DNA of 64,000 bases from an uncultured virus (IMG/VR IMGVR_UViG_3300042445_002020) (taxonomy: Duplodnaviria > Heunggongvirae > Uroviricota > Caudoviricetes), in the IMG/VR virus record IMGVR_UViG_3300042445_002020, one strand, 5' to 3'. Positions within the stretch are counted from its first letter, which is position 1. Each line of letters opens with the position of its first letter. Below the pieces are notes generated by a model. The model ran no database searches. It saw nothing but the letters and a program-made list of their open reading frames with translations, and was not told the origin of the DNA. Shown here one piece after another: positions 19,834 to 39,375 of the stretch. The translations under genes and the position numbers were made by a program.

Positions 19834-21288
19834 ATGTCAGAAGACTTAAAAATTTGGAGAGATAGTAGGCTTAATAGCATTAGTAAGAGTTTCTGTGCCG
19901 CTAAATGGTATAACGCAAGTTTACATTTAGGTCATGGTTATACTAATTCATGTCATTTACCATTACCACATCCTATTGATTTAGAAGAGATTAAAACAAA
20001 TCCATCAGCATTACACAATACAAAGATAAAAAAAGAGGCACGTAAAATGATGCAAGAAGGTATTAGACCTGCCGAATGTTCTTATTGTTGGAAAGTAGAA
20101 GATGTTGGTAGAAATAACATTTCAGATAGAGTTTTTAAAAGTAAAATATATTCTGATGAAGATTTATTGGCACTTAAAGATAGACCATGGGACCAGGATA
20201 TTAATTTAAAGACGGTAGAGGTTTCTTTTGATAGGACTTGTAATTTTGCTTGTTCATATTGTAATTCGGGATATTCCACTACGTGGGGTCAGGACATTAG
20301 AAAGAACGGACCCTATCAAAAATTTAAATCATCATCTGCAGGAGCATATCATTCCGATGGTTCTTGGTCCGAAGTTTATGGTAAAAATGGTGATGATAAT
20401 CCATACGTTCAAGCATTTATGGAGTGGTGGCCCGAATTATCACAAACATTACAAGAGGTTAGAATTACTGGCGGAGAACCATCAACGTCGTTTAACTTTT
20501 GGAACTTTATGGATGTAATGAAGATGAATTCATCACCAAACTTAAACCTAGCAATTAACTCTAACTTAGGAGTTGAAGATAAACTAATTGATAAACTAAT
20601 TCAAACATCACACGAAATTGATGTTAAGAATTTTGATTTATACACAAGTTGTGAGGCGTATGGGGACCAAGCTGAATATATCAGAGACGGATTAAAGTAC
20701 GATGTGTGGAGAAAAAATGTGGTTCGTATTATTGAAGAGGCTAAGTGTAGACAATTAATCATTATGATGACCATCAATAGTTTATGTTTATTTAGTATCA
20801 CCGAATTCTTGGATGATATGATATTATTAAAGAAAAAGTATGGTCAATACAAATTGGTGGTTGATTTAAACATATTAAGATGGCCAGCATTTATGTCGCC
20901 AGTATCTTTACCGAATGATTTAAAAAAATTAGCTCATGATAAATTAAAAACATGGTATCAAAATAAAGATAACTTGTCTTTATTACATGAAGGTGAGATT
21001 GCACAAATATTACGTCTGATTGATTATGTTGAGGTAGTTGAGAAGGGACATATTGCAACTGAAAATGATTTAGATAAACATTTTCACGATTTTAAAAGTT
21101 TCTATGAACAATATGACATTAGAAGAAATAAAGACTTCCGTAAAACTTTTCCTGAGTTGGTTGAATGGTATGATAGTATCGTAGTTGATTATAGTATACC
21201 AAACGTACCGATTAGTGATGGTAGAATTACCAATTACGAATTGGGTGAATATAAAGGTACTAATAATGGAAATGGTAAATTAATATAA
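19834..21288 (+). CDS. Radical SAM protein with N-terminal Twitch-like Cys cluster
   Basis: CNFACSYC, ITGGEP, FCAAKW..SCH..CSYCW; C-terminal extension ending GKLI. Confidence 0.9.
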   Translation: MSEDLKIWRDSRLNSISKSFCAAKWYNASLHLGHGYTNSCHLPLPHPIDLEEIKTNPSALHNTKIKKEARKMMQEGIRPAECSYCWKVEDVGRNNISDRVFKSKIYSDEDLLALKDRPWDQDINLKTVEVSFDRTCNFACSYCNSGYSTTWGQDIRKNGPYQKFKSSSAGAYHSDGSWSEVYGKNGDDNPYVQAFMEWWPELSQTLQEVRITGGEPSTSFNFWNFMDVMKMNSSPNLNLAINSNLGVEDKLIDKLIQTSHEIDVKNFDLYTSCEAYGDQAEYIRDGLKYDVWRKNVVRIIEEAKCRQLIIMMTINSLCLFSITEFLDDMILLKKKYGQYKLVVDLNILRWPAFMSPVSLPNDLKKLAHDKLKTWYQNKDNLSLLHEGEIAQILRLIDYVEVVEKGHIATENDLDKHFHDFKSFYEQYDIRRNKDFRKTFPELVEWYDSIVVDYSIPNVPISDGRITNYELGEYKGTNNGNGKLI

Positions 21289-22694
21289 TGAGTAAGGATA
21301 AAAAATTTAATAGTGCTGGAGATAAGGTAAGTGATACGTTTTGTATTATGCCTTGGACACATTTACACACGTGGCCAAACGGAAACGTATATCCATGTTG
21401 TTTGGCGGATTCAGACCATCCAGTGGGTAATTTAAAGAAGAACACATTGGAGGAGATATGGAATTCCAAAGATTTAAAGAAAATTAGAACTGAACTATTA
21501 AATGGAGAAAAACCCAATGTTTGTCATAGATGTTATATGCAAGAAGATATGGGTACACCATCATTTAGAGTTAGTTCAAATGATCAATGGCGACATCACA
21601 TTGATAATGCAATTGAAACAACATCGGAAGATGGGACCAGCAGTAATTTTAAATTAAATTATTGGGATTTTAGATTTTCAAATGTTTGTAATTTAAAATG
21701 TAGAATGTGTGGTCCCGAATTAAGTTCAAGTTGGTACGATGACCAAATTAATATGTTTGGAGAATCATCAACACCAAAAGCACTAATACATTGTAATGAT
21801 TTAGCACATGAAGACATTATGATATATGTTGATAGGTTCATTAATGACGTTGAGGAGATATATTTTGCAGGTGGAGAACCATTCATCATGGAAGAACATT
21901 ACATAATATTGGAGAAATTAATTAAAGCGGGGAACACGAAGTGTAGAATAAGATATAATACAAACTTTACATCTCTTAAATTTAAAAAATGGGATTTAAT
22001 TAAATTATGGAAACCATTTGTTAAATTTAATAAAGATAATGTTAGAGTTTTTGCTTCTTTGGATGCAATTGGAGAAGTTGCGGAATATGCTAGAAAAAAT
22101 ACTAAGTGGTCTGCAGTCGAAGGTAACATTAAAAGATTACATGAAAATAATATGAATGTGTGGACAAGTACCACCGTTAGTATTTTTAATTTATTTGAAT
22201 TACCCAAATTTGTTGAAAGAATGTCTGAGTTAGGAATCCCAATGAGTAAAATGCAGATGAATAATGTGTTGACATTTCCAGACTATTATTGTATCAATAT
22301 TTTACCAGACAAATTAAAAGAATATGCAATCACAATATTAGATAACCACATTAAATCTATAGAGGGTAACGAAGAATCAATACACATTAAAAATTATTAT
22401 GATGTAATTAAAAAATATCTTTACATGGAACCCCATAAATCAAAAGAAGAAATTAATAAAGATCTTATAAAATTTACTGAGATTAAGGATAAATGGAGAA
22501 ATGAAACGTTCGTGAATGTATTTCCATATTATAAAGAATGGTATGAATCTAAGGAAATAAAATCATTAAATGAAACGTTCCCAAATTATGTTGAATTTAT
22601 TAAACCACCAGATCCAACACCGACACCAACTCCAGAACTTAAAGAAATAAATTTAATACAAGAAAACAAAAAACCATGGCGAAAGTTGATTTAA
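21288..22694 (+). CDS. Radical SAM protein with N-terminal Twitch/SPASM-like domain
   Basis: FCIMPW...GNVYPCC...CHRC; CNLKCRMC; FAGGEP; Pro/Thr linker, then RKLI. Confidence 0.9.
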   Translation: MSKDKKFNSAGDKVSDTFCIMPWTHLHTWPNGNVYPCCLADSDHPVGNLKKNTLEEIWNSKDLKKIRTELLNGEKPNVCHRCYMQEDMGTPSFRVSSNDQWRHHIDNAIETTSEDGTSSNFKLNYWDFRFSNVCNLKCRMCGPELSSSWYDDQINMFGESSTPKALIHCNDLAHEDIMIYVDRFINDVEEIYFAGGEPFIMEEHYIILEKLIKAGNTKCRIRYNTNFTSLKFKKWDLIKLWKPFVKFNKDNVRVFASLDAIGEVAEYARKNTKWSAVEGNIKRLHENNMNVWTSTTVSIFNLFELPKFVERMSELGIPMSKMQMNNVLTFPDYYCINILPDKLKEYAITILDNHIKSIEGNEESIHIKNYYDVIKKYLYMEPHKSKEEINKDLIKFTEIKDKWRNETFVNVFPYYKEWYESKEIKSLNETFPNYVEFIKPPDPTPTPTPELKEINLIQENKKPWRKLI

Positions 22695-23743
22695 CAAAAT
22701 ATTATTGTGAACATCCATTTGTTTACACGGAATTTCACAGAAAATTCACACATGAAGGAATAAAAGAAACACAATTTTTATGTTGTCCCGATTGGAATGA
22801 CGTAGATATTCATGTTTCAGATAACCTAATGGATAACTGGGAGTCTGAACCGGCTAAAAGAGTTAGAGAAGGACATCTTAGTGGTAATTTTGTGGGATGT
22901 AATCCGATAAATTGTCCTGCGTATAATACATTATTAAACACAGGTAAACCAGCCGGTAACATTAGACCAATTAGTGAATTTGATGCTGAAAGATACAATC
23001 ATAAAGGACCAAGAAGAATTAAAATATGTTCTGACGATGCTTGTAATTTCCGTTGTCCAACTTGTCGAATTGATTTATATCCTAACACACCTGAAAAAAC
23101 CGAAAGAACTAACAAATTACTTGATAGTATTGCGGAATATTATGGACCAACATTAAAAGAAATTTATGTAAGCGGTGGAGGTGATCCTTTCTATAGTATA
23201 CCAATGAGAAACTTCCTAACCAATCTTAATGATAAAGATTTTCCGGCAATTGAAAGTGTTATTCTTCATACAAATGCATCGTTATGGACTGACAAAGTGT
23301 GGAGTCAAATGATTGGTATTCATCCATACGTTAGAATGGCGGAGATATCTATTGATGCGGCGACAAAAGACACGTATGAGAATAAAACAAGACTTGGAGG
23401 TAAGTGGGAAGTATTGATGGAGAATCTCGAATTCATTCGAACAATCGATACTATAGAAACAATTATTTTCTCATTTGTTGTTCAACAGAATAACTTTAGA
23501 GAAATGGAGGCGTTTGTTTTAATGATAGACGATTTATTTAAGGATTCAAAAATTAAAACTGTCATTCAACTCCAAAAAGTGGTTCAATGGCCGAGTATAT
23601 CGGATGAGAGATATGTGCAAATGAAAATATGGGAACCAACCAATCCAGAGTATAGTGATTTTGTAAAAGAATTGGTAAAAATTAAAAAATACAAAAACAT
23701 ATTACATAATCTAAACGAACACGACGAACAAAATTTGATATAA
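22676..23743 (+). CDS. Radical SAM protein
   Basis: CNFRCPTC, GGGDPF, HTNA, ISIDA; paralogue of 34067..35116. Confidence 0.9.
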   Translation: MAKVDLTKYYCEHPFVYTEFHRKFTHEGIKETQFLCCPDWNDVDIHVSDNLMDNWESEPAKRVREGHLSGNFVGCNPINCPAYNTLLNTGKPAGNIRPISEFDAERYNHKGPRRIKICSDDACNFRCPTCRIDLYPNTPEKTERTNKLLDSIAEYYGPTLKEIYVSGGGDPFYSIPMRNFLTNLNDKDFPAIESVILHTNASLWTDKVWSQMIGIHPYVRMAEISIDAATKDTYENKTRLGGKWEVLMENLEFIRTIDTIETIIFSFVVQQNNFREMEAFVLMIDDLFKDSKIKTVIQLQKVVQWPSISDERYVQMKIWEPTNPEYSDFVKELVKIKKYKNILHNLNEHDEQNLI

Positions 23744-24462
23744 TGAAAAAAATGTTATTAGCGGGATGTAGTCATTCTGCGGGTTTTGGTTTAGATGACA
23801 TTAATAAATCTTGGGGTAATATATTTGCTAAAAATAACAACCACACGTTAGTTAATGTATCCCAACCTGCAAGTTCATTACAATATGCAATTCAAAAAAT
23901 TGTTGATGAGATATCAAAAGAAGAATATACGACGATAATTCTACAATTAACCACATTTGACAGATATCCAATAACATATAATGGTGAAAATAGATTTCTA
24001 AACAATAACATAACCGATGTTGACACTTCAGTTGCGGATATTTTTCATTTAGTACCCGCCAATTATTTAGAGGCGGTAAATGGAGATAAAATGCCGTTAG
24101 ATAACGACGCAATTAGATTCTTTAATGAAAAAGTAATGCTCTCAACATTTTACCTAAACACCATTATGAATGAAATCTATTTGTTACAACAATTATTAAA
24201 ACATAAAGGAATTTATTTAATCTTAATCCCATATGACGATTATTTTTGGGGTGAGGAAAGTAACATGAGTATATGGAAATTTGAACAATCTAAAAAAATT
24301 GATAAAACTAATTACATAAAATATCCATTTATGAAATGGTTACGAGATAACTATAATCCAGATGATTATTACATGGATAAAGGATTTCATTTAAATGAGG
24401 CAGGACATAAACTTTTCGCTGAAGAATATCTACCAACTCTTCTTAACTCAAATCAATATTAA
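23743..24462 (+). CDS. SGNH/GDSL-hydrolase-like protein
   Basis: LAGCSHSAG block I and D..H(LNEAGH) block V. Confidence 0.7.
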   Translation: MKKMLLAGCSHSAGFGLDDINKSWGNIFAKNNNHTLVNVSQPASSLQYAIQKIVDEISKEEYTTIILQLTTFDRYPITYNGENRFLNNNITDVDTSVADIFHLVPANYLEAVNGDKMPLDNDAIRFFNEKVMLSTFYLNTIMNEIYLLQQLLKHKGIYLILIPYDDYFWGEESNMSIWKFEQSKKIDKTNYIKYPFMKWLRDNYNPDDYYMDKGFHLNEAGHKLFAEEYLPTLLNSNQY

Positions 24463-24463
24463 T

Positions 24464-25264
24464 ATGAAAGTAGTTTTTGGATTTACCCATGTTGTTAACC
24501 ACTACAAACCAATAAACGACAATTTTTTTAGGTTGGCTAAATTGTCCGTTAAATCGGCGAAGAAGTTTTATAAAACTAAAATATATTGCGATAACATATC
24601 CTTAAATCTTTTTAAGGAAAAGGGAATTACATTTGATGAGGTTATTATAATTGATGAGTTTATATTAAAATATACGGATAACTATGAGTATAATAGTAAT
24701 CAATATTCAATATCTAAAATATATGCTATGATGAATGAAACAGAACCATATATTTTGATGGATTTTGACGTGATATTGATGGAAAAATTGGAATCTACCC
24801 ACTCAATTACTTATGGACAACCAGAAGAGAAGTTTGATGGAGATCGTATAACTTTAAATCAATTGTTGTGGGCGTACGATGCTTATATAAACCCATTCAA
24901 TACCCATATGAAGAAATACTTTAATGATGAGGATATTAAGAATTTCAATTGGACAACGTTTCCATCTTTTTGTGTGATAATGGTTAAATTACCATATTTT
25001 GTAAGTACAATTTTTAAGGAAATAATGGATATAGTACCAAGAGAAGAAGTATATAAAATACCACCAACATTATTAGAACAATTCATATTTCACCAATATG
25101 TGTTAAAACATAATGTTGATTTTGGGTTTTTTATCCCACATATTTATAAAGATTATAGTACAAATTTTGAATCATTAGATTTGATATCACAAAAATTTTT
25201 ACACATAAATACGAATAAAAGAGACAGTAGAAAAAACATAGGCTATTTAGAAAATATTGTATGA
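24464..25264 (+). CDS. Putative glycosyltransferase-like protein
   Basis: SKIYA...EPYILMDFDV (DxD), LLEQ. Start moved to the ATG at 24464. Confidence 0.5.
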   Translation: MKVVFGFTHVVNHYKPINDNFFRLAKLSVKSAKKFYKTKIYCDNISLNLFKEKGITFDEVIIIDEFILKYTDNYEYNSNQYSISKIYAMMNETEPYILMDFDVILMEKLESTHSITYGQPEEKFDGDRITLNQLLWAYDAYINPFNTHMKKYFNDEDIKNFNWTTFPSFCVIMVKLPYFVSTIFKEIMDIVPREEVYKIPPTLLEQFIFHQYVLKHNVDFGFFIPHIYKDYSTNFESLDLISQKFLHINTNKRDSRKNIGYLENIV

Positions 25265-26928
25265 AATATATATTAGGGATATCGGCATTTTATCATGATT
25301 CATCGGCCTGTCTATTCAAAGACGGACAATTAATATATGCTTGCGAAGAAGAAAAATTCACAGGCATAAAACATGATAGTGAATTTCCCTTTAATAGTAT
25401 TGGATATATCGTAAAAAAATATAAACTATCAAAAGACAACATTGAGGCGGTTTGTTATTATGAAGACCCTAAATTAAAATTAGAGAGGGTCATTAATAAC
25501 ATAAAACCACAAATTTTTAAAAATACCATTTATTCTTTATCATCTTTCATTAAGATTAAAAGAAATACATATAAATTAAAGAAACTATTGTCTCAATATT
25601 CGGATAATGTTTTTTATTCAACACATCACGAATCACATCTTTATTATTCCTTCTATACATCAAATTTTGAAAACGCAATATGTCTTTCTATCGATGGTGT
25701 TGGTGAGGTTGACACAATGTCTTTAGGGTTAGGTGATAGAGTGGGTATTGATTATATATCAATGGCAAAATACCCACATTCAGTTGGGTTATTCTATTCC
25801 GCAATGACATCGTTTTTAGGGTTTAGACCCAATGAAGGAGAATATAAGGTAATGGGTTTAGCACCATACGGAAACCCCGATATCTATATCGATAAAGTTA
25901 GGAAACTCATTTCGTTTAAAAATAGTAAATTAACATGTAATATGGATGTATTTTGTTGGGATAAATCCAACAAAACAATGTTTAATGACCAACTATGTGA
26001 ACTACTTGAGATGGAACCTCGAGCAATGGATGGTGGATTGGAACCTCACCACAAAGATTTAGCGGCTGCAGTTCAAAAAAGATATGAAGAGATATTATTT
26101 GAAGTGATAAAATCAATATCGTTAATAAACGATAATAGGAATCTTTGTTTAGGTGGAGGATGTGCGTACAATGGAACGGCAAACGGTAAGATTGTAAGAA
26201 ATTCACATTTTAATAATTTATGGATACCTCCCGCACCATCAGATGCCGGATCGGCAATTGGTGCATGTATACACTACTTAGTTAAAAATCGTAAATTAAT
26301 TGGTCGAGTAAATAAATCACCATTTATAGGTCCACATTTTCTTCATAACGATATTTTAGAGGCGATTAAAGGTAAACGATATATTAAATTTAATTTGGAG
26401 GATTCCTTATTACGTAATGTGGCTAAAAAATTAAAAGAGGGTAAAGTAATAGGATGGTACAACGGTTATTGTGAATTTGGGTCCAGGGCTTTAGGAAACA
26501 GGTCAATTTTAGCTGATCCCACTATAGATGGTATGAAAGATAGGATTAATAAATTAATCAAAAAAAGAGAGGGTTTTAGACCATTTGCCCCAATGGTAAT
26601 AAAAGATAAACAACATCTATTTTTTGACGTTACAGATGATGTACCATATATGAATCAAGTTGTACAGGTTAAACCTGAATATAGGGATAAATTACCCGCA
26701 GTTACACACGTCGACGGTAGTGCTAGAATACAAACCGTTTACAAACACACGTTAATATATAAACTATTAGTTAAATTTGAAGAACTATCGGGATACCCTA
26801 TTTTACTTAATACGTCATTTAATGTTAAAGATAAAACTATGGTCCTAACACCAAAAGATGCGGTTGATACGTTTTTTAAAACAGACATGGATTTACTTGT
26901 TATGGGTAATTATTTAATATATAAATAA
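25261..26928 (+). CDS. O-carbamoyltransferase (NodU/CmcH/TobZ family)
   Basis: ILGISAFYHDS, HHESH, DGVGE, GEYKVMGLAPYG, EFGSRALGNRSILA, FRPFAP, THVDGSARIQ, LLNTSFN. Confidence 0.95.
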   Translation: MKYILGISAFYHDSSACLFKDGQLIYACEEEKFTGIKHDSEFPFNSIGYIVKKYKLSKDNIEAVCYYEDPKLKLERVINNIKPQIFKNTIYSLSSFIKIKRNTYKLKKLLSQYSDNVFYSTHHESHLYYSFYTSNFENAICLSIDGVGEVDTMSLGLGDRVGIDYISMAKYPHSVGLFYSAMTSFLGFRPNEGEYKVMGLAPYGNPDIYIDKVRKLISFKNSKLTCNMDVFCWDKSNKTMFNDQLCELLEMEPRAMDGGLEPHHKDLAAAVQKRYEEILFEVIKSISLINDNRNLCLGGGCAYNGTANGKIVRNSHFNNLWIPPAPSDAGSAIGACIHYLVKNRKLIGRVNKSPFIGPHFLHNDILEAIKGKRYIKFNLEDSLLRNVAKKLKEGKVIGWYNGYCEFGSRALGNRSILADPTIDGMKDRINKLIKKREGFRPFAPMVIKDKQHLFFDVTDDVPYMNQVVQVKPEYRDKLPAVTHVDGSARIQTVYKHTLIYKLLVKFEELSGYPILLNTSFNVKDKTMVLTPKDAVDTFFKTDMDLLVMGNYLIYK

Positions 26929-26929
26929 T

Positions 26930-27046
26930 ATGAAAAAACTATTGAATTGGATTAAATCAAAAATTGAGGATTATAAACGTAAAAAACGTTTTAAGAAGAA
27001 ATTAGAAGAATTACGTAAAAAAGACCCATTTATTTACAATCATTAA
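26930..27046 (+). CDS. Small basic 38-aa protein ending DPFIYNH (not in the ORF track)
   Basis: MKKLLNWIKSKIEDYKRKKRFKKKLEELRKKDPFIYNH; starts 1 nt after the carbamoyltransferase stop. Confidence 0.65.
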   Translation: MKKLLNWIKSKIEDYKRKKRFKKKLEELRKKDPFIYNH

Positions 27047-27071
27047 TATGATAAAAATCATTTAAATATAT

Positions 27072-27100
27072 TTGATATTTTCAAATATATTGATTATATT
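27072..27100 (+). promoter_or_regulatory. Sigma70-like promoter TTGATA-17-TATATT
   Basis: Same architecture as at 47653 and 52540. The -10 ends 7 nt before ATG 27108. Confidence 0.5.
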
Positions 27101-27107
27101 AATGGTA

Positions 27108-27542
27108 ATGATATATTGGTTAACTGGTCAGCCTGGTGCCGGAAAAACAACCTTGGCAAAATACTTAGTGGAATACTTTCCGAAAGATGAGGTTACCCAC
27201 ATCGATGGAGATGACCTAAGGGACATCTTTAAAAACAAGGACTATTCCATTACAGGAAGAAGATTAAACATCCAAAGAGCACAATACATTGCACAATTCA
27301 TGCATAGTAAAGGACATAATGTTATTGTATCCCTAGTTTCACCATATAGAGACCAAAGAGAGGCTTTTAAATTCAGCACATCGGTTGTTGAGATTTATGT
27401 ACACACTACAGAGGATAGAGGTAGGAATCAATTCCACGTTGAGGAATATGAACCACCATTAGAAAATTTTATAGATATAGACACAACAATAAAAAACGAA
27501 ACAGATTCATATTATGAACTGTTAAAAAAATTATCATTATGA
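27108..27542 (+). CDS. cysC: Adenylyl-sulfate (APS) kinase
   Basis: WLTGQPGAGKTT P-loop, IDGDDLR, GRRLNI, VSLVSPY, YEPP. Confidence 0.85.
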   Translation: MIYWLTGQPGAGKTTLAKYLVEYFPKDEVTHIDGDDLRDIFKNKDYSITGRRLNIQRAQYIAQFMHSKGHNVIVSLVSPYRDQREAFKFSTSVVEIYVHTTEDRGRNQFHVEEYEPPLENFIDIDTTIKNETDSYYELLKKLSL

Positions 27543-27919
27543 GTAAAAAATACGCAATGTACATCGGAAGATGGCAGAACTGGCATAAGGGGCATGAATG
27601 GTTAATCAATCAACAACTTGATAAGGGTAAGGACATTTGGTTGGCAATCAGGAATGTCCCAATTGATGAAAATAACCCAAAAAGTGCACAAGAGGTTATG
27701 ATGGAATTAGTTGACACCCAATTTTTTAAAGATAATTCACATAAGATTCAAATATCTATTATTCCTGATATTGAATCTGTTAATTATGGTAGAGGTGTTG
27801 GGTACGATGTTATATATCATGAACCTCCCGCTGATGTGGCGGTTATTAGTGGAACGGCTATTAGAACCGGACATATGACGCCAGATGGTACAATAACATA
27901 TGACCAAACTAAAGGATAA
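27539..27919 (+). CDS. HIGH-class nucleotidyltransferase (cytidyltransferase-like)
   Basis: IGRWQNWHKGH, YGRGVGY, ISGTAIR. Confidence 0.75.
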   Translation: MSKKYAMYIGRWQNWHKGHEWLINQQLDKGKDIWLAIRNVPIDENNPKSAQEVMMELVDTQFFKDNSHKIQISIIPDIESVNYGRGVGYDVIYHEPPADVAVISGTAIRTGHMTPDGTITYDQTKG

Positions 27920-28784: not shown

Positions 28785-28790
28785 GATAGT

Positions 28791-31274: not shown

Positions 31275-31891
31275 TAAAAAATTACTATATATTTGATGAT
31301 ATAATATCAACTGAAGAACAAAAAATTATAAACGATTATGTAAATCGTTCTAATATAGAATGGGTATCAATCAAAAATGTCACTGGTGAATACGGAGGAA
31401 AAAAAGAAACACGCAAATTTCCAGCAAAAGTTCATCCAAAACTCAAATGTAAAGACAAAGAAATTAATCGTATAATTGATGGTATAGAATTGGTTGTTAC
31501 AAAAAAACTAAATTTAGAATTTATTAAAAATTATAGATGGAAAATTAATTGGACTTCACCAATTGGTGAGTATAATCCTATGGATTTACTACATTACGAT
31601 GATGCTACCGAACACATTGCTATGGTTTATTATATTAACAATTCAACCGGAGATACCTGCATTTATAATAATACTAATGGAAATAACGCCGAAACATTTC
31701 AAAAAAATTTTAATAATGTAGATTATGACTCATACTCTCTATTGGGTAGTGTATCTCCTAAAATGGGTAGATGTCTTGTATTTGATGGAAAATTAGCACA
31801 TCTTGGAAATTATCCATCAAATGGAGATAGGTTTATTATAAATTTTAATTTTGTAGCAAAATTAAAAAACTCACGAAACTCATTGATATAA
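31271..31891 (+). CDS. 2OG-Fe(II) oxygenase-like protein
   Basis: HYD, VYYINNSTGDT, PKMGRCLVFDG..H...RFIINFN. Confidence 0.75.
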   Translation: MIKNYYIFDDIISTEEQKIINDYVNRSNIEWVSIKNVTGEYGGKKETRKFPAKVHPKLKCKDKEINRIIDGIELVVTKKLNLEFIKNYRWKINWTSPIGEYNPMDLLHYDDATEHIAMVYYINNSTGDTCIYNNTNGNNAETFQKNFNNVDYDSYSLLGSVSPKMGRCLVFDGKLAHLGNYPSNGDRFIINFNFVAKLKNSRNSLI

Positions 31892-31977
31892 TATTAGTAG
31901 ATGAAAAATTCATAAAAAGATATTATAATATTTATGATTATTACGATAATCAAAAAACTAATAAGACACTAATATAA
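31891..31977 (+). pseudogene. Internally deleted remnant of a paralogue of 30513..31274
   Basis: Translates ILVDEKFIKRYYNIYDYYDNQKTNKTLI*, i.e. the start (MLVDNNFI) joined to the end (RYNSIYDFYDTPKTNKTLI) of the sulfotransferase-like gene. Start codon is ATA. Confidence 0.75.
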
Positions 31978-31978
31978 G

Positions 31979-32281
31979 ATGTTTAAAATACCCGCAATTA
32001 ATTATAAAGAAATATTTGAAGCTTGGAAAATTTCACGTAATCCGACACCAAAACAAGAGGAGTTAGCTAAATTAAGACTCGAAGTATGTTTGGGGTGTGA
32101 ATTTAGAAAAGAAACAATAAAAGGGTTAAAATGGAGTGCTCTTTGTGGAAAATGTGGGTGTCCTCTGAATAAGAAAGTGTTCTCAACAAACTACAACGCT
32201 TGTCCAGCAAAAAAATGGGAAAATACCGATTTTGGGTATATAGAACCAAAGGAAGATAAAAAAAATAAGACATTAATCTGA
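31979..32281 (+). CDS. Small Cys-rich (probable metal-binding) protein
   Basis: RLEVCLGC...CGKCGCPL...CPAKKW; ends KTLI. Confidence 0.7.
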   Translation: MFKIPAINYKEIFEAWKISRNPTPKQEELAKLRLEVCLGCEFRKETIKGLKWSALCGKCGCPLNKKVFSTNYNACPAKKWENTDFGYIEPKEDKKNKTLI

Positions 32282-32308
32282 GATTTTGATTAAAATCATT
32301 AATTCACC

Positions 32309-32316
32309 TATTTATA
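32309..32316 (+). promoter_or_regulatory. Putative late-promoter motif TATTTATA
   Basis: Intergenic, 19 nt before ATG 32336; same motif as before the tail fibre genes. Confidence 0.45.
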
Positions 32317-32335
32317 TATAAACGGAATAAAATTT

Positions 32336-33811
32336 ATGAAAGCAACGATAATTGGTAGTGATTTACTACAAAAAGACGGATCAGTTAAAATTATAGAAAT
32401 AAACACTAATACCTGTATCACCAACGATGGTGCAAACTTATTAGATTATACAGCGTTATTCAGCATGTTAACGGATAATAATATTACAGAATTTCATTAT
32501 ATATTGACTGAAGGAAAAGCGTATTCCCCTTTAGATGAACCACATAAGTTTCGTAATATATTACAAACTAAATGTTTAGAAAACGACATATCTTTTAACG
32601 AACACGTTGTACCCGCTAATTCAGTTACGGTGCCATATATAGAAGATGCATCTCATAAATTTATTTTAAGACAAGCATTTGATACCACGGCATTAGTGGA
32701 TGATTTATATTGTGCCGACAAATTTGAGTTTTTTAATTTAATGAGTGGATCCACATATATTCCAAAAACATATTTTACATCTGAAGAATTAAATTTAAAT
32801 ACTTTAGATGAAGTAGATTACGACACAACCAAACCAAATCTTTTGATAAAATCAAAACAGGTTTCGTATGATGTTATGGCATATCCGGCAATATATAATG
32901 TTACCGATTCAAACCAACTATCTGAAGTTATTGGTTCCGTTGAAAGTGGTCATTTAGTTCAAGAATTCATATTTTCTGAGGATAATGTGGTGGATGGAAG
33001 ATATTCAACAATAAGAAGTATTGATATTATATATGGTCCTAATTTAGATATCATTAATATGGGTGGATATACTCACTCGAGTAGATTACCACTCACATTT
33101 AGTGAGGATGAACTTATTTCCGATACTAGAAAGTTTAATCAAAAAACTAGACATAAGTATATTACAAAATCTATTAGGAATCGAGTAGAAGGAAACGAAT
33201 ACCATACAGATGACGATTCAAATATTTTAAAATATGATGGTACTTTAGTGGATGTTGACACTATTCAATTAGGTGACTTTATTCGTTCTATTAATTTTAC
33301 CGATACTAATGAAAATGAAGCGGCTTCATTTACAAATAATATAGCCACATATGGATGGACTGGTACACTATCACAATTAAACAATACGTTAACACCAATG
33401 CAATCTGAATTAGTGGGTATGGTATCAACATCACTAGAAATGGTAATGATAAAGGTAACTTTATCGGATGGACGAACTTGGACAGAAGCTCCAAATTCTA
33501 CTTTTTTTATTGAAGAAAAAGACTCTACCGAAACCAGATGGGAGGTAATAAATAATTGTTATATTGGTGATAAAATAGTTGTTACAGATTCTAATACAAC
33601 CGAATTAACGGCGGTAGCGATTTCTAATTTAGAGATGGTATACGAAACTAAAACAATATATACTTTAGATTTTGCACCATCCGATTTATTCTTAGTGGAT
33701 GTTGGAGATAGTGATTTTGCTGTAATGCACAATGGTTGTTGGTGTAGTTATTGGTATTGTGGTAACTATTGTTATCAACAATATTGCCCAACTTGTTTCT
33801 CCGAAAAATAA
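32336..33811 (+). CDS. Circularly permuted ATP-grasp-like domain + degenerate Hint domain + 25-aa Cys/aromatic-rich C-terminal peptide
   Basis: GSDLL..GSVKIIEINTN at the N-terminus, then DKFEF, IPKTY, LLIK, LVQEFI. Hint-like ILKYDGTLVDVDTIQLGDFI...IGDKIV...IYTLDFAPSDLFLV...MHN, then GCWCSYWYCGNYCYQQYCPTCFSEK. Confidence 0.7.
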   Translation: MKATIIGSDLLQKDGSVKIIEINTNTCITNDGANLLDYTALFSMLTDNNITEFHYILTEGKAYSPLDEPHKFRNILQTKCLENDISFNEHVVPANSVTVPYIEDASHKFILRQAFDTTALVDDLYCADKFEFFNLMSGSTYIPKTYFTSEELNLNTLDEVDYDTTKPNLLIKSKQVSYDVMAYPAIYNVTDSNQLSEVIGSVESGHLVQEFIFSEDNVVDGRYSTIRSIDIIYGPNLDIINMGGYTHSSRLPLTFSEDELISDTRKFNQKTRHKYITKSIRNRVEGNEYHTDDDSNILKYDGTLVDVDTIQLGDFIRSINFTDTNENEAASFTNNIATYGWTGTLSQLNNTLTPMQSELVGMVSTSLEMVMIKVTLSDGRTWTEAPNSTFFIEEKDSTETRWEVINNCYIGDKIVVTDSNTTELTAVAISNLEMVYETKTIYTLDFAPSDLFLVDVGDSDFAVMHNGCWCSYWYCGNYCYQQYCPTCFSEK

Positions 33812-33874
33812 ACTATATAAGTAATATATAGTTCTAATCTCAAAGTATTAATAATTCAAATAAAAAATAAAATT

Positions 33875-34024
33875 ATGGCAAAGGTAGAAAAAATAAGAGT
33901 ATCAAGACCCGCACAGGTAGTTAAAGTAATTACTGGTCCATTATCTAATGATTTAAAAACAAAAGTAGCAACTGCATTTGAATCTGTCGTATCTGCAATT
34001 AAAGTTAAACATTTAGGAGAATAA
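33875..34024 (+). CDS. Small basic 49-aa protein (not in the ORF track)
   Basis: MAKVEKIRVSRPAQVVKVITGPLSNDLKTKVATAFESVVSAIKVKHLGE, preceded by an A-rich leader. Confidence 0.65.
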   Translation: MAKVEKIRVSRPAQVVKVITGPLSNDLKTKVATAFESVVSAIKVKHLGE

Positions 34025-34066
34025 TATCTACTAAGTATTTGATTTCATTAGTTAAATTGTTATAAG

Positions 34067-35116
34067 ATGAAATCTAAAATAGATTTAAAGAATTATTTTT
34101 GTGGTGTTCCCTTTAATTCATTAGAAATACATAATAATGTTTGTTTTGTTTGTTGCCCATCATGGGTACCAAATAAAATAGAACTTAGTGAAATACCACT
34201 AAAAGATGTTTATAATAGTGAACCTGTAGTTGATATTAGAAATTCAATATTAGATGGTTCGTTTAAGTATTGTAATAAAGAACTTTGTCCTTATTTAAGT
34301 AAATTAGTAAACTATGGGGTAACATCTGGTCCAGTTACTTTAAAATCCAATTCAACCATCAATGACCCAATTGTAAAGAATGGTACTCCAGATAATATTG
34401 TGATGAACTTTGATAGGACTTGTAATTACAAATGTCCTTCATGTAGAGTTGATTTAATTGTTGAAAATAGTGAAGGTATAAAACGAGTTGAAAAAACAAT
34501 TGAGGAGATTGATAATTACTTTTCACAACACGTTAAGACTTTATACATTACAGGATCGGGAGACCCATTTGTTTCCGTTGGGTTTAGAAACTATCTTAGA
34601 AACTTTAACCCCAAAAAATATCCAAACTTAAAATCAATACACTTACATACTAACGCATCGATGTGGAATAAAGAAATGTGGGATAGTATGCCTAACATAC
34701 ACAAATACGTTCATACCTGTGAAATCAGTATAGACGCCGGTACCAAAGATACGTATGAAAATAAAACAAGATTAGGAGGTAATTGGAAGAACTTATTAAG
34801 TAATCTTAAATTCATAAGTACGTTACCAATAAATGTGAAAACATCCTTTGTTGTACAAGATTCTAACTATATGGAAATGGGAGAATTTTATAACCTGATG
34901 TATTCTATTTTTGGTAAAAAAGTAAACGTGTTCTTTGGTAAGATAACTAATTGGGGGACATTTTCTGAAGGAGAATTTAAATTAAAACAAGTATGGGACA
35001 CGGACCATCCCGAGCATCAACTATTTAAAAATGAATTTAATAAAATATGGAAAAATCAAAATCTATTTCATAATTTATATGAGTTTATTGACACCACAAA
35101 TAAAACTTTAATTTAA
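34067..35116 (+). CDS. Radical SAM protein
   Basis: CNYKCPSC, GSGDPF, HTNA, ISIDAG; N-terminal C..CC..C..C cluster. Confidence 0.9.
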   Translation: MKSKIDLKNYFCGVPFNSLEIHNNVCFVCCPSWVPNKIELSEIPLKDVYNSEPVVDIRNSILDGSFKYCNKELCPYLSKLVNYGVTSGPVTLKSNSTINDPIVKNGTPDNIVMNFDRTCNYKCPSCRVDLIVENSEGIKRVEKTIEEIDNYFSQHVKTLYITGSGDPFVSVGFRNYLRNFNPKKYPNLKSIHLHTNASMWNKEMWDSMPNIHKYVHTCEISIDAGTKDTYENKTRLGGNWKNLLSNLKFISTLPINVKTSFVVQDSNYMEMGEFYNLMYSIFGKKVNVFFGKITNWGTFSEGEFKLKQVWDTDHPEHQLFKNEFNKIWKNQNLFHNLYEFIDTTNKTLI

Positions 35117-35637
35117 TGAAAATCTCATTTAGTAAAGAAGAATGTGATTATATAATCAATTTATCCAAAGAATTAGATAAAATAAATCCGTTTGATAAAC
35201 CTGACCATATGAGTAAAGATAAAACTTTTAAGGTAAACTATGATGTGTGGTTAATTAATAGAAACGAAAAAACTCAATGGATATTTGATAAAATTCACAT
35301 GTATTTTACGAATAAAACTGATTTAAAAATAAAAAAAGAATTAGATAAAATATACATACACAAATATATTGAAGGACAACAATTTTCAAAACACGCTGAC
35401 ACATATTATAAAACACAAATACACAATGTGGGTGTTTGTTTAAATAATGATTATGATGGAGGTGAATTTGTTCTTTATAATCCAGAAGAACCGTTACCAA
35501 AAGAGACGGGTATTATATATACTTTCCCTAGTCAAAGAATACATGAAGTAAAAAAAATAATAAAAGGTGAAAGATGGAGTATAATTGGATTTTTACATAT
35601 TGACAATTTAGATCTTCAAAAAAAATCACTAATATGA
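35116..35637 (+). CDS. 2OG-Fe(II) oxygenase
   Basis: FSKEEC, HAD, LNNDYDGG, HEVK...RWS. Confidence 0.85.
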   Translation: MKISFSKEECDYIINLSKELDKINPFDKPDHMSKDKTFKVNYDVWLINRNEKTQWIFDKIHMYFTNKTDLKIKKELDKIYIHKYIEGQQFSKHADTYYKTQIHNVGVCLNNDYDGGEFVLYNPEEPLPKETGIIYTFPSQRIHEVKKIIKGERWSIIGFLHIDNLDLQKKSLI

Positions 35638-36191
35638 AAATTGGTATAACAGGTCATTCAGAAGGAATTGGAAACGATATCTATTTGAATTTAATAAAAG
35701 AATATGATGTCACAGGATTTAGTAGAAGTAATGGATTTGATATAAAAAATACAGATGAAATTATTGAGCAATTAGAAAATTGTGATGTTTTTATAAACAA
35801 TGTATACGAAAAAAATCACCAAACAATATTATTTGAATTAATTTTTGATAAATGGAAGTTTTTACCAAAAACAATTATTAATATGAATAGTAGTTGTGTT
35901 TATCATTCATCCGATTGGTCACCAGAATATGCAAATAATAAAAAAGAGTTAAAAGAAGTATCTTTAAATGCAATTAGAAATAATAAAAATAAAAAAGTTA
36001 GAGTCATAAATTTATATCCATCCACCTTATCAACTCATATGGGGTTTGAAAGTTTAAATAAATTAGATACTGAAAATCTTGCAAAAATGATAAATTGGTT
36101 AATAAAACAACCACAGGAAGTTGAAATTAGGGAAATGAGTATATACTGTACAACAGTGGAGAAAGAATTCAAAATAGATAAATTAATATAA
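35634..36191 (+). CDS. Short-chain dehydrogenase/reductase-like protein
   Basis: ITGHSEGIG, VFINN, IINMNS, YANNK (YxxxK). Confidence 0.75.
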   Translation: MKIGITGHSEGIGNDIYLNLIKEYDVTGFSRSNGFDIKNTDEIIEQLENCDVFINNVYEKNHQTILFELIFDKWKFLPKTIINMNSSCVYHSSDWSPEYANNKKELKEVSLNAIRNNKNKKVRVINLYPSTLSTHMGFESLNKLDTENLAKMINWLIKQPQEVEIREMSIYCTTVEKEFKIDKLI

Positions 36192-37361
36192 ATGGAAATA
36201 CAATTTTGGTATTGTGGTAATCTACCAAACACGAATATTAAAAACTCAATTGAAAAAATAGATAATACCATTTTATTCAAAAACATTTATATTGATGAAA
36301 TAGACCTCACAAAATTAAATTTTTTAGTTTTATTGTTAGAAACAGAATGGACTAATTCTTCAAATTATGGTGTGGTACATACACACACTAACAAATTTAT
36401 GGAATTGATAATTAAATTACAGAGTAATAATTTTTATTTTATGTTGGATAATTCAGGAGAAGCCGAACTTTGGGTTGATGGACTATCCTCAAAATTCTTT
36501 GATTTATTAAATAAAAATAAAATTGATTTCAACAGATTAATCGTAATTAATAATGACTCATCTAAAATTGGGTTGAATAAAACAAGGTATGGTAATTTTA
36601 TATTAAATACGTGTTTCTTCCCTAATTTTTTCTTATCGACCTATAATCAAATGAATGAGTATGTTACTATTAATGAGGGAATTAAACCAGATAAAAAGTT
36701 TTTATGTTTGAATAGAAGAATGAATTTTCAAAAATATCAAATTATTGAAGAATTATTTAATAAAGGGTTATTAAAAGATACTCGATTTACATGGGTACGC
36801 AACTCGGTACCCAACAATAAGATAAGTAAAGAATTAATACTAGAATACAATATAGATGTAAATAACTTCAAATCAATTCAATTGGAGGGTGATGTAATGT
36901 ACGGAAGTGATTTATCGCGTCACGATGAGTTTCTATTCACAATAAACCCTAATTGGTACTATAAAAGTAAAGTTAATATTATAACCGAAACAACGTTATA
37001 TAAAAATTCAATACATCTTACAGAAAAAACATGGAAAGCCATATATCTAGGTGTTCCATTTGTTATATATTCTCCATCACGAAATTATCTTAACACCTTG
37101 AGAGATATGGGGTTTAAGACGTTTAATTCGGTGATAAATGAGGATTATGACAGTATTATAGGTAATGATAAGATAACTCAAATTATAAATAGTGCGGAGG
37201 AATTAGTTACCATTTATAACACACCGGAAGTGTTGGATATATGTAAATTTAACCAAGAATTATATTTTAATTTTGAGCATCGAAAAAGAATATATGAAGA
37301 AGTTTTTTTAAATAAAATTCACGATGCTCAAAATTTAACAAACCCTAAAACATTAATATAA
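36192..37361 (+). CDS. Conserved hypothetical protein, possibly GT-B glycosyltransferase-like
   Basis: KFLCLNRR, NIITET, LTEKTWKAI...PF...GFKTF...EDYD. Confidence 0.5.
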   Translation: MEIQFWYCGNLPNTNIKNSIEKIDNTILFKNIYIDEIDLTKLNFLVLLLETEWTNSSNYGVVHTHTNKFMELIIKLQSNNFYFMLDNSGEAELWVDGLSSKFFDLLNKNKIDFNRLIVINNDSSKIGLNKTRYGNFILNTCFFPNFFLSTYNQMNEYVTINEGIKPDKKFLCLNRRMNFQKYQIIEELFNKGLLKDTRFTWVRNSVPNNKISKELILEYNIDVNNFKSIQLEGDVMYGSDLSRHDEFLFTINPNWYYKSKVNIITETTLYKNSIHLTEKTWKAIYLGVPFVIYSPSRNYLNTLRDMGFKTFNSVINEDYDSIIGNDKITQIINSAEELVTIYNTPEVLDICKFNQELYFNFEHRKRIYEEVFLNKIHDAQNLTNPKTLI

Positions 37362-37915
37362 TGCGAGTTCTGGTTTTATCCCATACGAGATGTGGATCTA
37401 CCACGTTATGTAAATGGTTAAGTAAAGAGTTAGATATTGTTTTGGACGAAAGACCATACGATTTTAAAACATTTAATTCGATAACTAAATCTAATAATGT
37501 TATAAAAAAAATTGTTGTTGAGGAATATTACCCAACAAAAGAGGACATTATTAAATTTGATAAAGTTGTGTGCTTAACAAGGGAAAATAGTACAGAAGCG
37601 TCGATTAGTTTTACACAATCCAAAAATATTGATAAATGGCACGATCAATATGAAATAACAACGGAATGGATTGGTGAAAATAAAAATGAAATATTGAAAC
37701 AAATATACAAATATGACGAGATGAAATTAAGGTTAAAAGAATATAAGGTTTTTCAAACAACATATGAAAGTATCTATGTTAGTAAATCTGATATTAATAA
37801 AATTTTAAACTATATGGATATTGATTCACCAAAATATTTAGATATGTTAAATTATGATAAAAAATATAGAAAAGATAATAATGTTTTTATTAAAAAACAT
37901 ATTGGAATTATATGA
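37361..37915 (+). CDS. Sulfotransferase-like protein
   Basis: SHTRCGSTTL, ERP, CLTR, TYE; similar to 27919..28578. Confidence 0.6.
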   Translation: MRVLVLSHTRCGSTTLCKWLSKELDIVLDERPYDFKTFNSITKSNNVIKKIVVEEYYPTKEDIIKFDKVVCLTRENSTEASISFTQSKNIDKWHDQYEITTEWIGENKNEILKQIYKYDEMKLRLKEYKVFQTTYESIYVSKSDINKILNYMDIDSPKYLDMLNYDKKYRKDNNVFIKKHIGII

Positions 37916-38565
37916 TAAGAATATATTACCATATTTACGCAATTGATGGGGTTGAGTCGATTATAGAAGAACAACTTTCTTTAATGGAAACCCATTTTAA
38001 TTTTAAACATATAATAAACATTGGAATATGTTTATCGGAAGAAAACATACCAATAGATAATATTATTAAATTAATCGACAAGTACAATAAATCAAATCAT
38101 ATAGTTGTTTGTGATATTAAAAATGAATGCAATGAGTTTGTAACTTTAGACTTAATAGAAACACATAAATCAACATTTGATGATAACGATTTAATTTTTT
38201 ACCTACACACTAAGGGAGCATCTAAACAAAAAAGTGATGATTATAAAGAAAATGTAATTTGGAGAAACAGAATGCAAGATGTTAACATAAAAAACCACAA
38301 TCATGTTTTTAATTTGTTTAATAGTACCGATTTTAACACATATGGTTTATTATTAGAAAATGTAAACAATTTAATTTATTCAGGAAATTTTTGGTGGGTT
38401 AAAGGAAAATATATTAAAACAATTAATATTGAAGATGTTGAAAAGAATAGATGGAATGCGGAGTCACAATACATACAAAATGGAACTAATTGGAACCCAT
38501 ATTCGGAGTATGTTAAAATGATAAAAACAAAACCTCCATATTATAAAAAAAACAAATTAATATAA
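37912..38565 (+). CDS. Hypothetical protein, possibly glycosyltransferase-related
   Basis: IYYHI, NEFVTL, FYLHTKG, YSGNFWW. Confidence 0.5.
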   Translation: MIRIYYHIYAIDGVESIIEEQLSLMETHFNFKHIINIGICLSEENIPIDNIIKLIDKYNKSNHIVVCDIKNECNEFVTLDLIETHKSTFDDNDLIFYLHTKGASKQKSDDYKENVIWRNRMQDVNIKNHNHVFNLFNSTDFNTYGLLLENVNNLIYSGNFWWVKGKYIKTINIEDVEKNRWNAESQYIQNGTNWNPYSEYVKMIKTKPPYYKKNKLI

Positions 38566-38574
38566 TTATAAAAT

Positions 38575-39375
38575 ATGAATCCATTAAAATATTGGACATT
38601 GGAGGGATTTGAAATATCTTCATTTCAATTTAATTTAAATGAAAGAAAGGGAAAAACACATAAAACATCGGGTTCCGATAATACGAGGTTGTGTACATAT
38701 ACATATAATGAATTAGGATTTAGAGGTGATAGTGTAAAAAAAGAGGGGTTTAAAGTAATGTCATTAGGTTGTTCACATACCGAAGGTGTTGGTGTTGATT
38801 ACAATAATACGTGGCCAACGCAATTTACAAATCTTATACCAAACGGTGTTAATATGAATTTTGGTGTGGGTGGTAGAAGTAATGATTTTATTGTTAGATG
38901 TTTGATGTCATATTATGATGTGATAAAACCGGATTTAGTGTTAGTAATGTACCCATCACCATTAAGAAGGGAAGTGTATACAAAAGATGGAGGAGTGGAA
39001 CCATTTGTGCCAACTCATTCATGGGGATATATGAATGGAACCGAAGACGGTAAACAAACACAAAATTATTTAACCGAGTTACAAAACGATAATGAAGATT
39101 TTATTAATTGGTATAAAAATCACCAACTAATAAAATTATTTTTAGAATCTAAAAATTGTAATTGGATTTGGAATGGGTCATTCGGTATACCAATCGAATA
39201 TAGTGAATATAATAGATTTGATGGGGAATACCTATTTTTTATTGATAAGGGTGTTGATGGTGGTCATCCAGGACCCAAACAAAATAAAAGTTACGCCAAT
39301 AAATTACACGATTATATTTTATTAAATTTCCCAAATTACATACCATTTGATAATTTTAAATCAAAATTAATATAA
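38575..39375 (+). CDS. SGNH-hydrolase-like protein
   Basis: NELGFRG, LGCSHTEGVG, NFGVGG, DGGHPG. Confidence 0.7.
   Translation: MNPLKYWTLEGFEISSFQFNLNERKGKTHKTSGSDNTRLCTYTYNELGFRGDSVKKEGFKVMSLGCSHTEGVGVDYNNTWPTQFTNLIPNGVNMNFGVGGRSNDFIVRCLMSYYDVIKPDLVLVMYPSPLRREVYTKDGGVEPFVPTHSWGYMNGTEDGKQTQNYLTELQNDNEDFINWYKNHQLIKLFLESKNCNWIWNGSFGIPIEYSEYNRFDGEYLFFIDKGVDGGHPGPKQNKSYANKLHDYILLNFPNYIPFDNFKSKLI

Follow-up and report, generated by a model that had tools for sequence, protein, structure and literature searches.

A Leu-Ile tail shared by tailoring enzymes of unrelated folds in a T4-like phage island: a possible docking tag

A gene island at positions 19834-39375 of an uncultured Caudoviricetes sequence (IMG/VR record IMGVR_UViG_3300042445_002020; 64,000 nucleotides, referred to in full as the window) encodes radical SAM enzymes, 2-oxoglutarate-Fe(II) (2OG) oxygenases and other putative tailoring enzymes of unrelated folds that end in the same short C-terminal tail. 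This tag is real and selected at the protein level, is exposed, is all-or-none by protein family, and is always found together with an untagged 491-residue Hint-domain protein encoded inside the island (32336-33811). We tentatively favour its interpretation as a docking handle that recruits the enzymes to a module centred on the 491-residue protein, a reading that we rate somewhat short of probable; the factor that would read the tag may be the 491-residue protein, its 49-residue partner or another component. The interpretation offered in a preliminary description of this DNA, of a shared C-terminal ligand recruiting tailoring enzymes, is partly supported.

Within the island, 14 of the 25 open reading frames (ORFs) of at least 40 residues end in Leu-Ile-stop (at 21288, 22694, 23743, 29354, 30513, 31274, 31891, 32281, 35116, 35637, 36191, 37361, 38565 and 39375), versus none of the 46 elsewhere in the window (binomial P = 3.5e-22 relative to the internal Leu-Ile dipeptide frequency of 0.0099; Fisher P = 1.9e-8); for ORFs of at least 60 residues, the figures are 14/27 and 0/41. 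Four other proteins carry conservative variants of the tail, namely KQKIV (17887), RNKIL (28578), TKSII (29871) and HIGII (37915). The 14 Leu-Ile tails are written with various codons (Leu: TTA 9, TTG 3, CTA 2; Ile: ATA 11, ATT 2, ATC 1) and all three stops (TAA 10, TGA 3, TAG 1); the tail of 21288-22694 lies inside the start of 22676-23743, with which it overlaps by 19 nucleotides, and Gly/Asn (GTNNGNG) and Pro/Thr (PDPTPTPTP) linkers bear the tag on two radical SAM proteins. In all these respects, pentapeptides included, the preliminary description proved accurate, as it did in placing Leu-Ile ends exclusively within the island. The same confinement is seen in two relatives read over 95-102 kb, with 14/47 ORFs inside versus 0/71 elsewhere in G002 (102 kb) and 5/9 versus 0/148 in G003 (95 kb). 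Pfam supports a radical SAM assignment for 4-5 of the tagged window proteins and a 2OG oxygenase assignment for 5-6, and an N-terminal RCGS(T/G)S motif, which we take to be sulfotransferase-like, is found on three more. No N-terminal motif common to the tagged proteins was found, and a cluster look-up returned no informative names. Radical SAM and 2OG genes outside the island (15849-17234, 17889-19256, 49207-49851 and 49852-50859) are untagged.

The tail is a signal in the protein, under protein-level selection, rather than in the DNA. Relatives at 54-73% identity keep it though codons and upstream residues differ: all 14 members of the GT-B glycosyltransferase orthogroup end in Leu-Ile, with Ile written ATA, ATT or ATC; one oxygenase paralogue keeps KKTLL, written with CTC, CTT, TTG or TTA; and across orthologues the hydrophobic pair is encoded by codons as unrelated as ATG TTA, TTT CTT and ATT ATA. 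In 204 homologous pairs of which both members are tagged (mean identity 53%), position-wise identity reaches 0.75 at the last residue and 0.82 at the penultimate one, versus 0.15-0.28 at positions -6 to -13, and the same residue is specified by a different codon in 84/152 pairs (last residue) and 53/168 pairs (penultimate). When pairs are not restricted to those with both members tagged (n = 304), the partner of a Leu-Ile protein also ends in Leu-Ile in 210 cases and carries a different hydrophobic pair in 55; the remaining 39 partners have neither. Among the matches listed, two hydrophobic residues terminate 117/120 homologues of the 2OG oxygenase 35116-35637 (39-95% identity) and 120/120 homologues of the GT-B enzyme (53-95% identity). 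At the nucleotide level, the two window strands together hold 114 instances of the Leu-Ile-stop 9-mer class, of which only 14 are at gene ends; the tail is fixed to its own stop, with a gap to the next start of -19, -4, -1, 0, +1, +9, +54 or +87 nucleotides; the TAATG and ATGA junctions are also used by untagged genes; and Leu-Ile-type tails are found on minus-strand genes in G002 as well. Neither outcome named in the preliminary description as refuting it was observed: the motif is not conserved as DNA irrespective of reading frame, nor is it common elsewhere. The protein-level selection suggested at the outset is borne out by orthologues that keep the hydrophobic pair while its codons change.

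A separate observation concerns the starts of paralogous radical SAM genes (22676-22694 and 34067-34090; M.K[V/I]DL.), which read K-L-I-stop in another frame. This hidden K-L-I-stop serves as the tag of the upstream gene at 22694, and at 34067 it reads NQKLI-stop and is unused; it may reflect chance or a route of tag acquisition.

A consensus over 356 distinct tails from always-tagged families shows Lys enriched 6.4-fold at position -7 and 6.9-fold at -4, and Thr and Ser enriched 5.5-fold and 3.7-fold at -3 (T 125, S 94, K 49, N 35), followed by Leu (277) or Ile (69) and then Ile (265) or Leu (77). Every one of the 356 ends in I, L, M, F or V, and positions -7 to -3 contain a mean of 1.88 basic residues (K/R) versus 0.55 expected. 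Two AlphaFold2 models, built from alignments of 64 and 52 sequences, predict the tag to be exposed and disordered: in the 2OG oxygenase 35116-35637 (predicted local distance difference test score, pLDDT, 90.7) the final 3 residues fall below 50, and in the GT-B protein 36192-37361 (pLDDT 86.5) residues 381-389, which lie past the final helix, average 60. The tag is an add-on: radical SAM paralogues occur both with and without it and the orthogroup of 38575-39375 includes short forms (8 members end in LI, 3 in LF and 4, nine residues short, in ...YIP).

The family-level survey covered 80 viral loci fetched by the 491-residue protein. In these, 418 of 1483 ORFs end in Leu-Ile and 791 in two hydrophobic residues; at least one Leu-Ile end occurs in 79/80 loci, and tagged genes surround the 491-residue protein in 80/80. 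Of 51 families each present in at least five loci, 16 carry the tag in every member, 28 in none, and 7 are mixed. The always-tagged set includes 2OG oxygenases (160/160, 65/65, 16/16 and 7/7), SGNH-like proteins (46/46), tryptophan halogenases (35/35), radical SAM enzymes (24/24) and CmcI-like methyltransferases (5/5), that is, types of enzyme that modify polymers or peptides; kinases, DUF2061 proteins, carbamoyltransferases, Hsp20, nucleotide-sugar enzymes and structural genes are untagged. Across the window and its relatives, the tag is found on double-stranded β-helix, radical SAM, GT-B, flavin halogenase, SGNH and methyltransferase folds, in agreement with its earlier portrayal as a mark on interchangeable tailoring enzymes. 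The tryptophan halogenase family, to which L152:5792-7036 belongs, is tagged near the Trp-rich peptide; the window has no halogenase.

The tag is present in hundreds of relatives of this T4-like phage. Gene order in the arrays varies between relatives by whole-gene moves, and genes that close an array or lie on their own keep the tag; in L090 and L140 a tagged GT-B gene stands isolated, yet the 491-residue gene and the tagged array lie 40-50 kb away on the same contig. No Leu-Ile ends were found among 34 coding sequences of S-SSM2, 56 ORFs of the marine single-cell virus record Marine virus AG-345-E15 or 17 genes of the Syn9 halogenase/dioxygenase array (gp40-gp61), the last of which also lacks a match to the 491-residue protein. 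Distant GT-B homologues in other viral contigs do not carry the tail; those of L038, L031, L041 and others share a different C-terminus, ...FLEFADS[RS]QV[SP]S, which may be another lineage-specific end motif. Beside the tagged array of the relatives L067 (G003 1-8000) and L061 (G002 13204-14118) are genes for peptide deformylase, an IscA-like protein, ferredoxin, IscU (NifU_N) and Hsp20, and elsewhere the same relatives encode full-length DnaJ, a sigma-70 factor, thioredoxin and glutaredoxin.

The strongest lead, which goes beyond the preliminary description, is that the tag accompanies the 491-residue protein in 80/80 loci and its 49-residue neighbour in 76/80. Members of the 491-residue family consist of a conserved N-terminal domain of ~300 residues, a Hint-like domain and a six-Cys, Trp/Tyr-rich C-terminal peptide with the pattern C-W-C..W.Y-C-G..C..S..C-P.C. 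The C-terminal His-Asn of the Hint-like domain is invariant in 39 sequences and an N-terminal Cys is absent, in the window copy too; the domain is predicted to cut only at its C-terminal His-Asn. The architecture of the protein suggests that cleavage there would set free a variable Cys/Trp/Tyr peptide. The window copy itself has no Pfam match, and canonical Hint matches are obtained for 31/70 divergent family members and the form in G002. The family comprises 369 representative clusters at E<=0.001; the protein found no tblastn match in 50,697 phage records, Syn9 included, no relative in one genome each of 185,579 prokaryote species, and no sequence match in the PDB by profile search. In another arrangement (L063:14913-17651, in G002, and L020:810-3548), the same N-terminal domain is followed by half a Hint domain and three canonical tandem Hint modules (Pfam Hint, Intein_splicing and AXH), with no Cys peptide. 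In 57/78 relatives the 491-residue protein ends in Lys plus Leu/Ile/Val, which echoes the enzyme tag by one residue; in the window copy the end is FSEK. The 49-residue ORF (33875-34024), detected by tblastn in 76/80 loci around the 491-residue protein, is a candidate partner or tag reader.

The genes of the island and the evidence for each are as follows.

19834-21288, + strand: radical SAM-like protein, 484 residues (weak Pfam Radical_SAM match); tail ...GTNNGNGKLI on the Gly/Asn linker.
21288-22694, + strand: SPASM/radical SAM protein, 468 residues (Pfam SPASM 1.4e-15, Radical_SAM 4.5e-12); tail ...PDPTPTPTPELKEINLIQENKKPWRKLI (WRKLI); final codons overlap the next gene.
22676-23743, + strand: radical SAM protein, 355 residues (Pfam 8.9e-10); tail EQNLI; orthogroup ends 8/9 LI, 1 LL.
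23743-24462: SGNH-like ORF, untagged in the window.
25261-28784, + strand: untagged supply genes (Pfam), namely a carbamoyltransferase, APS (adenosine 5'-phosphosulfate) kinase, a kinase-like protein and a DUF2061 membrane protein.
27919-28578, + strand: sulfotransferase-like P-loop protein, 219 residues (RCGSGS motif); variant tail RNKIL.
28791-29354, + strand: 2OG-Fe(II) oxygenase, 187 residues (Pfam 5.9e-14); tail KQNLI; 15/15 of its orthogroup end in two hydrophobic residues.
29356-29871, + strand: 2OG-Fe(II) oxygenase, 171 residues (Pfam 2.6e-9); variant tail TKSII; the L016 orthologue ends in KTLI.
29875-30513, + strand: 2OG oxygenase-like protein, 212 residues (weak Pfam match); tail EKSLI.
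30513-31274, + strand: sulfotransferase-like P-loop protein, 253 residues (RCGSTS motif); tail NKTLI; orthologues KTLL/KTIL.
31271-31891, + strand: 2OG oxygenase-like protein, 206 residues (Pfam scan); tail RNSLI.
31849-31977, + strand: relic 3' end of a second copy of 30513-31274, ending ...YDYYDNQKTNKTLI-stop (NKTLI).
31979-32281, + strand: small Cys-rich protein, 100 residues; tail NKTLI; orthologues KTML, KTFL, KTII.
32336-33811, + strand: untagged 491-residue Hint/six-Cys protein at the centre of the tagged genes (N-terminal domain ATP-grasp-like on weak evidence).
33875-34024, + strand: 49-residue partner ORF, immediately 3' of the 491-residue gene (tblastn).
34067-35116, + strand: radical SAM protein, 349 residues (Pfam 3e-8); tail NKTLI.
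35116-35637, + strand: 2OG-Fe(II) oxygenase, 173 residues (Pfam 3e-9; AlphaFold2 model); tail KKSLI.
35634-36191, + strand: SDR-like protein, 185 residues (sub-threshold adh_short match); tail IDKLI; 3/3 orthologues LI.
36192-37361, + strand: GT-B fold glycosyltransferase, 389 residues (AlphaFold2 and Foldseek); tail PKTLI.
37361-37915, + strand: sulfotransferase-like protein, 184 residues (RCGSTT motif); variant tail HIGII; orthologues KTLI, NKLI, KDII, NKMI.
37912-38565, + strand: protein without assigned family, 217 residues; tail KNKLI.
38575-39375, + strand: protein without assigned family, 266 residues; tail KSKLI.

The fold labels first attached to these proteins fare unevenly. The radical SAM and 2OG assignments stand by Pfam, and SDR stays below threshold; an SGNH family is always tagged in relatives, although the window's own SGNH-like ORF is not; and the sulfotransferase-like label comes from the RCGS(T/G)S motif together with one weak Stf0 match, to the G002 orthologue of 37361-37915. 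For the GT-B protein, a profile search against PDB sequences returned nothing useful, and Foldseek gave 142 PDB matches at E<=0.001 with GT-B enzymes on top. In the loci around the 491-residue protein, a family whose representative has the length of 30513-31274, putatively its own, is tagged in 77/77 cases and the small Cys-rich family (95-101 residues) in 73/73. The supply-gene families of 25261-28784 travel with the module and are untagged in relatives too. The relic at 31849-31977, which is identical to the end of 30513-31274 at 50 of its 60 final nucleotides, points to cassette turnover, being the remnant of a duplicated sulfotransferase-like gene that has kept its tag.

Docking to the 491-residue module is favoured by three features of this distribution: the all-or-none behaviour of families, the restriction of the tag to macromolecule-modifying enzymes, and the joint presence and joint absence of tag and module. 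The tag consists of a Lys-rich, flexible linker with [K/N]-[T/S/K]-Leu-Ile-COOH at its end, in which LL, II, IL, ML or FL can substitute for LI. It would mark the accessory enzymes of a single module, that is, 2OG oxygenases, radical SAM enzymes, sulfotransferase-like proteins and the GT-B enzyme, joined in relatives by tryptophan halogenases, SGNH proteins and O-methyltransferases, around a core formed by the untagged 491-residue protein and its 49-residue partner. A single common reader would bind the free hydrophobic C-terminus plus the basic linker and bring the tagged enzymes to a substrate or assembly that they share, the most plausible candidates being the Cys/Trp/Tyr-rich peptide and a neighbouring fibre protein. 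Under this scheme, single-gene cassettes for enzymes of any fold could be gained, lost or shuffled. Tailoring of the Trp/Tyr/Cys-rich peptide or of the fibre protein would suit the presence of tryptophan halogenases, hydroxylases, sulfotransferase-like proteins and radical SAM enzymes.

A more specific version is possible, if on the unlikely side. In the biosynthesis of ribosomally synthesized and post-translationally modified peptides (RiPPs), every tailoring enzyme has recognition elements that read a leader peptide. The phage system would resemble it in directing many tailoring enzymes (radical SAM enzymes, oxygenases, methyltransferases and halogenases) to one ribosomal peptide substrate, but with an inverted logic: each enzyme would carry the peptide, a C-terminal tag of five to seven residues, and the precursor, the 491-residue Hint protein, or another protein such as the 49-residue partner would carry the reader. 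That reader might be the ATP-grasp-like domain, possibly through a pocket for C-terminal carboxylates, and acquisition of the tag would make any enzyme a plug-in, allowing rapid diversification of a Cys/Trp/Tyr-rich peptide in a host-recognition island.

Several points weigh against docking to the module. The ATP-grasp label on the N-terminal domain of the 491-residue protein is weak, with RimK matches at E >=0.018 in 6/39 members and a GSP_synth match in 1/70 members and 0/3 records, and with Atlas leads at 0.87-0.88. Loss of the tag is tolerated in some families, as in the four close orthologues of 38575-39375 that end nine residues early. Tail codons lean mildly towards TTA (53/70; background 0.555) and ATA (43/70; background 0.38), at chi-square P values of 0.019 and 0.0003 uncorrected for shared ancestry, so that a small nucleotide-level component is possible. 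Moreover, because basic residues followed by two aliphatic C-terminal residues also fit the ClpX degron class, sequence alone cannot separate docking from proteolysis. Finally, a PDZ domain, whose class I ligands the tail had initially been said to resemble, was not found in general Pfam scans of the window and relatives, and in the three partial relatives G001-G003 (13-39% complete) PF13180 reached a sub-threshold 11.6 bits and PF17820 gave nothing. Class I PDZ ligands have the form X-[S/T]-X-hydrophobic-COOH, with no requirement for a penultimate Leu; the phage tails share the hydrophobic last residue, but only 219/356 have Ser/Thr third from the end, many having Lys/Asn instead, and their penultimate Leu is nearly fixed, so that the class I PDZ reading is not upheld. 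A complex prediction for the 491-residue protein and a tagged 2OG oxygenase, both supplied as alignments, scored 0.00 and, with controls absent, weighs neither way.

The main rival, though unlikely, makes the tag a degron or unfoldase handle. One of the host AAA+ machines ClpX, FtsH and Lon would recognise it and either shorten the lifetime of the enzymes or remodel them. Nonpolar C-termini destabilise bacterial proteins, and the tag lies at the extreme C-terminus, is predicted to be disordered and places two aliphatic residues after Lys within its excess of basic residues. The tag resembles the ClpX-recognised C-motif-2 of MuA (...QNRRKKAI; PMC12723719), in which basic residues likewise precede two aliphatic ones at an unstructured C-terminus. 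The phage tag differs in having Leu-Ile rather than Ala-Ile, with Ser/Thr preferred before it, and in being carried by at least 16 enzyme families that co-occur with one phage protein. A degron would also leave unexplained the coupling to the 491-residue module, the all-or-none pattern by family and the tag-free Syn9 arrays, and a benefit of destabilising at least 14 enzymes is not evident.

It is rather improbable that the tag is instead a ligase substrate, with the ATP-grasp-like domain of the 491-residue protein joining or capping the α-carboxylate of the terminal Ile (to a peptide, the 49-residue partner or an amine). Peptide C-terminal carboxylates are what RimK-, GspS- and TTL-type ATP-grasp ligases act on, the co-occurrence evidence applies here just as it does to docking, and the 491-residue protein itself has a tag-like Lys plus Leu/Ile/Val end in 57/78 relatives; yet the ATP-grasp assignment is weak, no acceptor is known and covalent capture of 14 enzymes is without known precedent.

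Very unlikely is a role in cofactor or chaperone delivery, in which the tag would pass apo-enzymes to an iron, Fe-S or folding helper. By Pfam, 9/17 tagged window proteins are iron enzymes (4 radical SAM and 5 2OG), relatives encode IscU, an IscA-like protein, ferredoxin and Hsp20 beside the array and DnaJ elsewhere, and a precedent exists in the [LIM]-[DES]-[WF]-COOH signal of the eukaryotic cytosolic iron-sulfur protein assembly (CIA) pathway (PMC10245660). However, GT-B, sulfotransferase-like, methyltransferase and flavin halogenase families are tagged as well, and the four radical SAM and 2OG genes outside the island listed above carry no tag.

More doubtful still is that the tag directs the enzymes to a location, for instance the membrane, a phage-made compartment or the virion, and not to a partner in the module. 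Short C-terminal labels of this sort exist elsewhere, as in peroxisomal targeting signal 1 (PTS1) and KDEL, and the island sits between fibre-like structural genes; but two aliphatic residues are too short a stretch to insert into a membrane, ~260 kb of related sequence showed no compartment genes, and oxygen-sensitive radical SAM enzymes would be of no use in virions.

The least credible alternative is a nucleotide junction element, a TTAATATAA-like DNA or RNA serving translational coupling or providing microhomology for cassette shuffling, with the residues as a by-product: many genes overlap at TAATG/ATGA junctions, whole genes have moved between relatives, the relic 3' end keeps its tag and the tail codons show the mild TTA/ATA bias, but the hydrophobic character survives unrelated codons and start distances from -19 to +87, the same junctions serve untagged genes, 100 of the 114 Leu-Ile-stop 9-mers lie away from gene ends, and array-terminal and isolated genes keep the tag. 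Dilysine KKXX, β-clamp/gp45-clamp motifs, the small heat-shock protein I-x-I motif and an amphipathic membrane helix were dropped on sequence grounds alone.

As a docking handle, the tag would have counterparts in other systems of C-terminal client recognition, of which PTS1/PEX5 is one. Another is the eukaryotic CIA targeting complex, where the C-terminal tripeptide [LIM]-[DES]-[WF]-COOH recruits Fe-S clients (PMC10245660), so that, as in the phage, a very short motif at a free C-terminus assigns unrelated folds to one machine. The client-recognition pattern fits the phage tag, in that unrelated folds share the motif and non-clients lack it (16 always-tagged and 28 never-tagged of 51 families). 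The phage tail, K-x-x-K-[T/S]-L-I, is however neither [LIM]-[DES]-[WF] nor S-K-L, the known readers are eukaryotic, and, in contrast to those of CIA, its clients are the tailoring enzymes of one gene island. A literature search, which did not extend to supplements, turned up no account of tailoring enzymes from phages or bacteria that have a C-terminal tag in common.

The window has a low GC content (25-38%) and close-packed or overlapping genes, mostly on the + strand. A 42.8-kb IMG/VR phage record is 100% identical to positions 28000-40000; among deposited phages, no match was found for the island DNA (28000-40000 or 34067-37361) or, in protein-level searches, for the GT-B and 491-residue proteins, and the 2OG oxygenase 35116-35637 has distant matches only. 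Genes flanking the island are fibre-like or virion-like according to PHROGs, and gene 50852-51877 is ~45% identical to hypothetical proteins in 126 phage records, nearly all of T4-like cyanophages. By Pfam, PHROGs and this neighbour gene (45% identical to Kyanoviridae genes), the setting is the fibre region of a T4-like phage, which here holds a tandem array of 2OG oxygenases along with further tailoring enzymes. Elsewhere in the window, 45381-46523 and 46543-47652 are tandem paralogues (phrog_1417) with similar C-termini (...SSGHCGWRA and ...SSGANGWRG) that adjoin a 1764-residue protein without family match.

With its fibre-like flanks and enzyme array, this setting matches two published descriptions. 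Pelagimyophages and cyanomyophages have a hypervariable host recognition cluster with fibres, glycosyltransferases and radical SAM cassettes (PMC7029224), and cyanophages carry tandem dioxygenase arrays, including the dioxygenase/halogenase arrays of Syn9, with bacterial neighbourhoods combining 2OG, sulfotransferase, PAPS (3'-phosphoadenosine 5'-phosphosulfate) and tail-collar genes (Iyer et al. 2010, PMC2938197). The island resembles these in its enzyme types and in its position next to the tail-fibre genes of T4-like phages from marine and fresh waters; it differs from the Syn9 array in its tag and its 491-residue protein, and the excerpts of the two papers make no mention of a shared C-terminus.

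Should the docking reading prove right, the tag would be, to our knowledge, the first portable address label to span many folds in a phage or bacterial biosynthetic island, and would explain how a pathway can exchange single-gene cassettes. It would also supply a rule for recognising pathway members in metagenomes, namely an ORF ending in K..K[T/S]LI near a Hint protein, and possibly a small tag for assembling sets of enzymes on a scaffold. The findings point to an abundant, uncharacterised system of peptide or protein modification in the host-recognition region of large aquatic T4-like phages.

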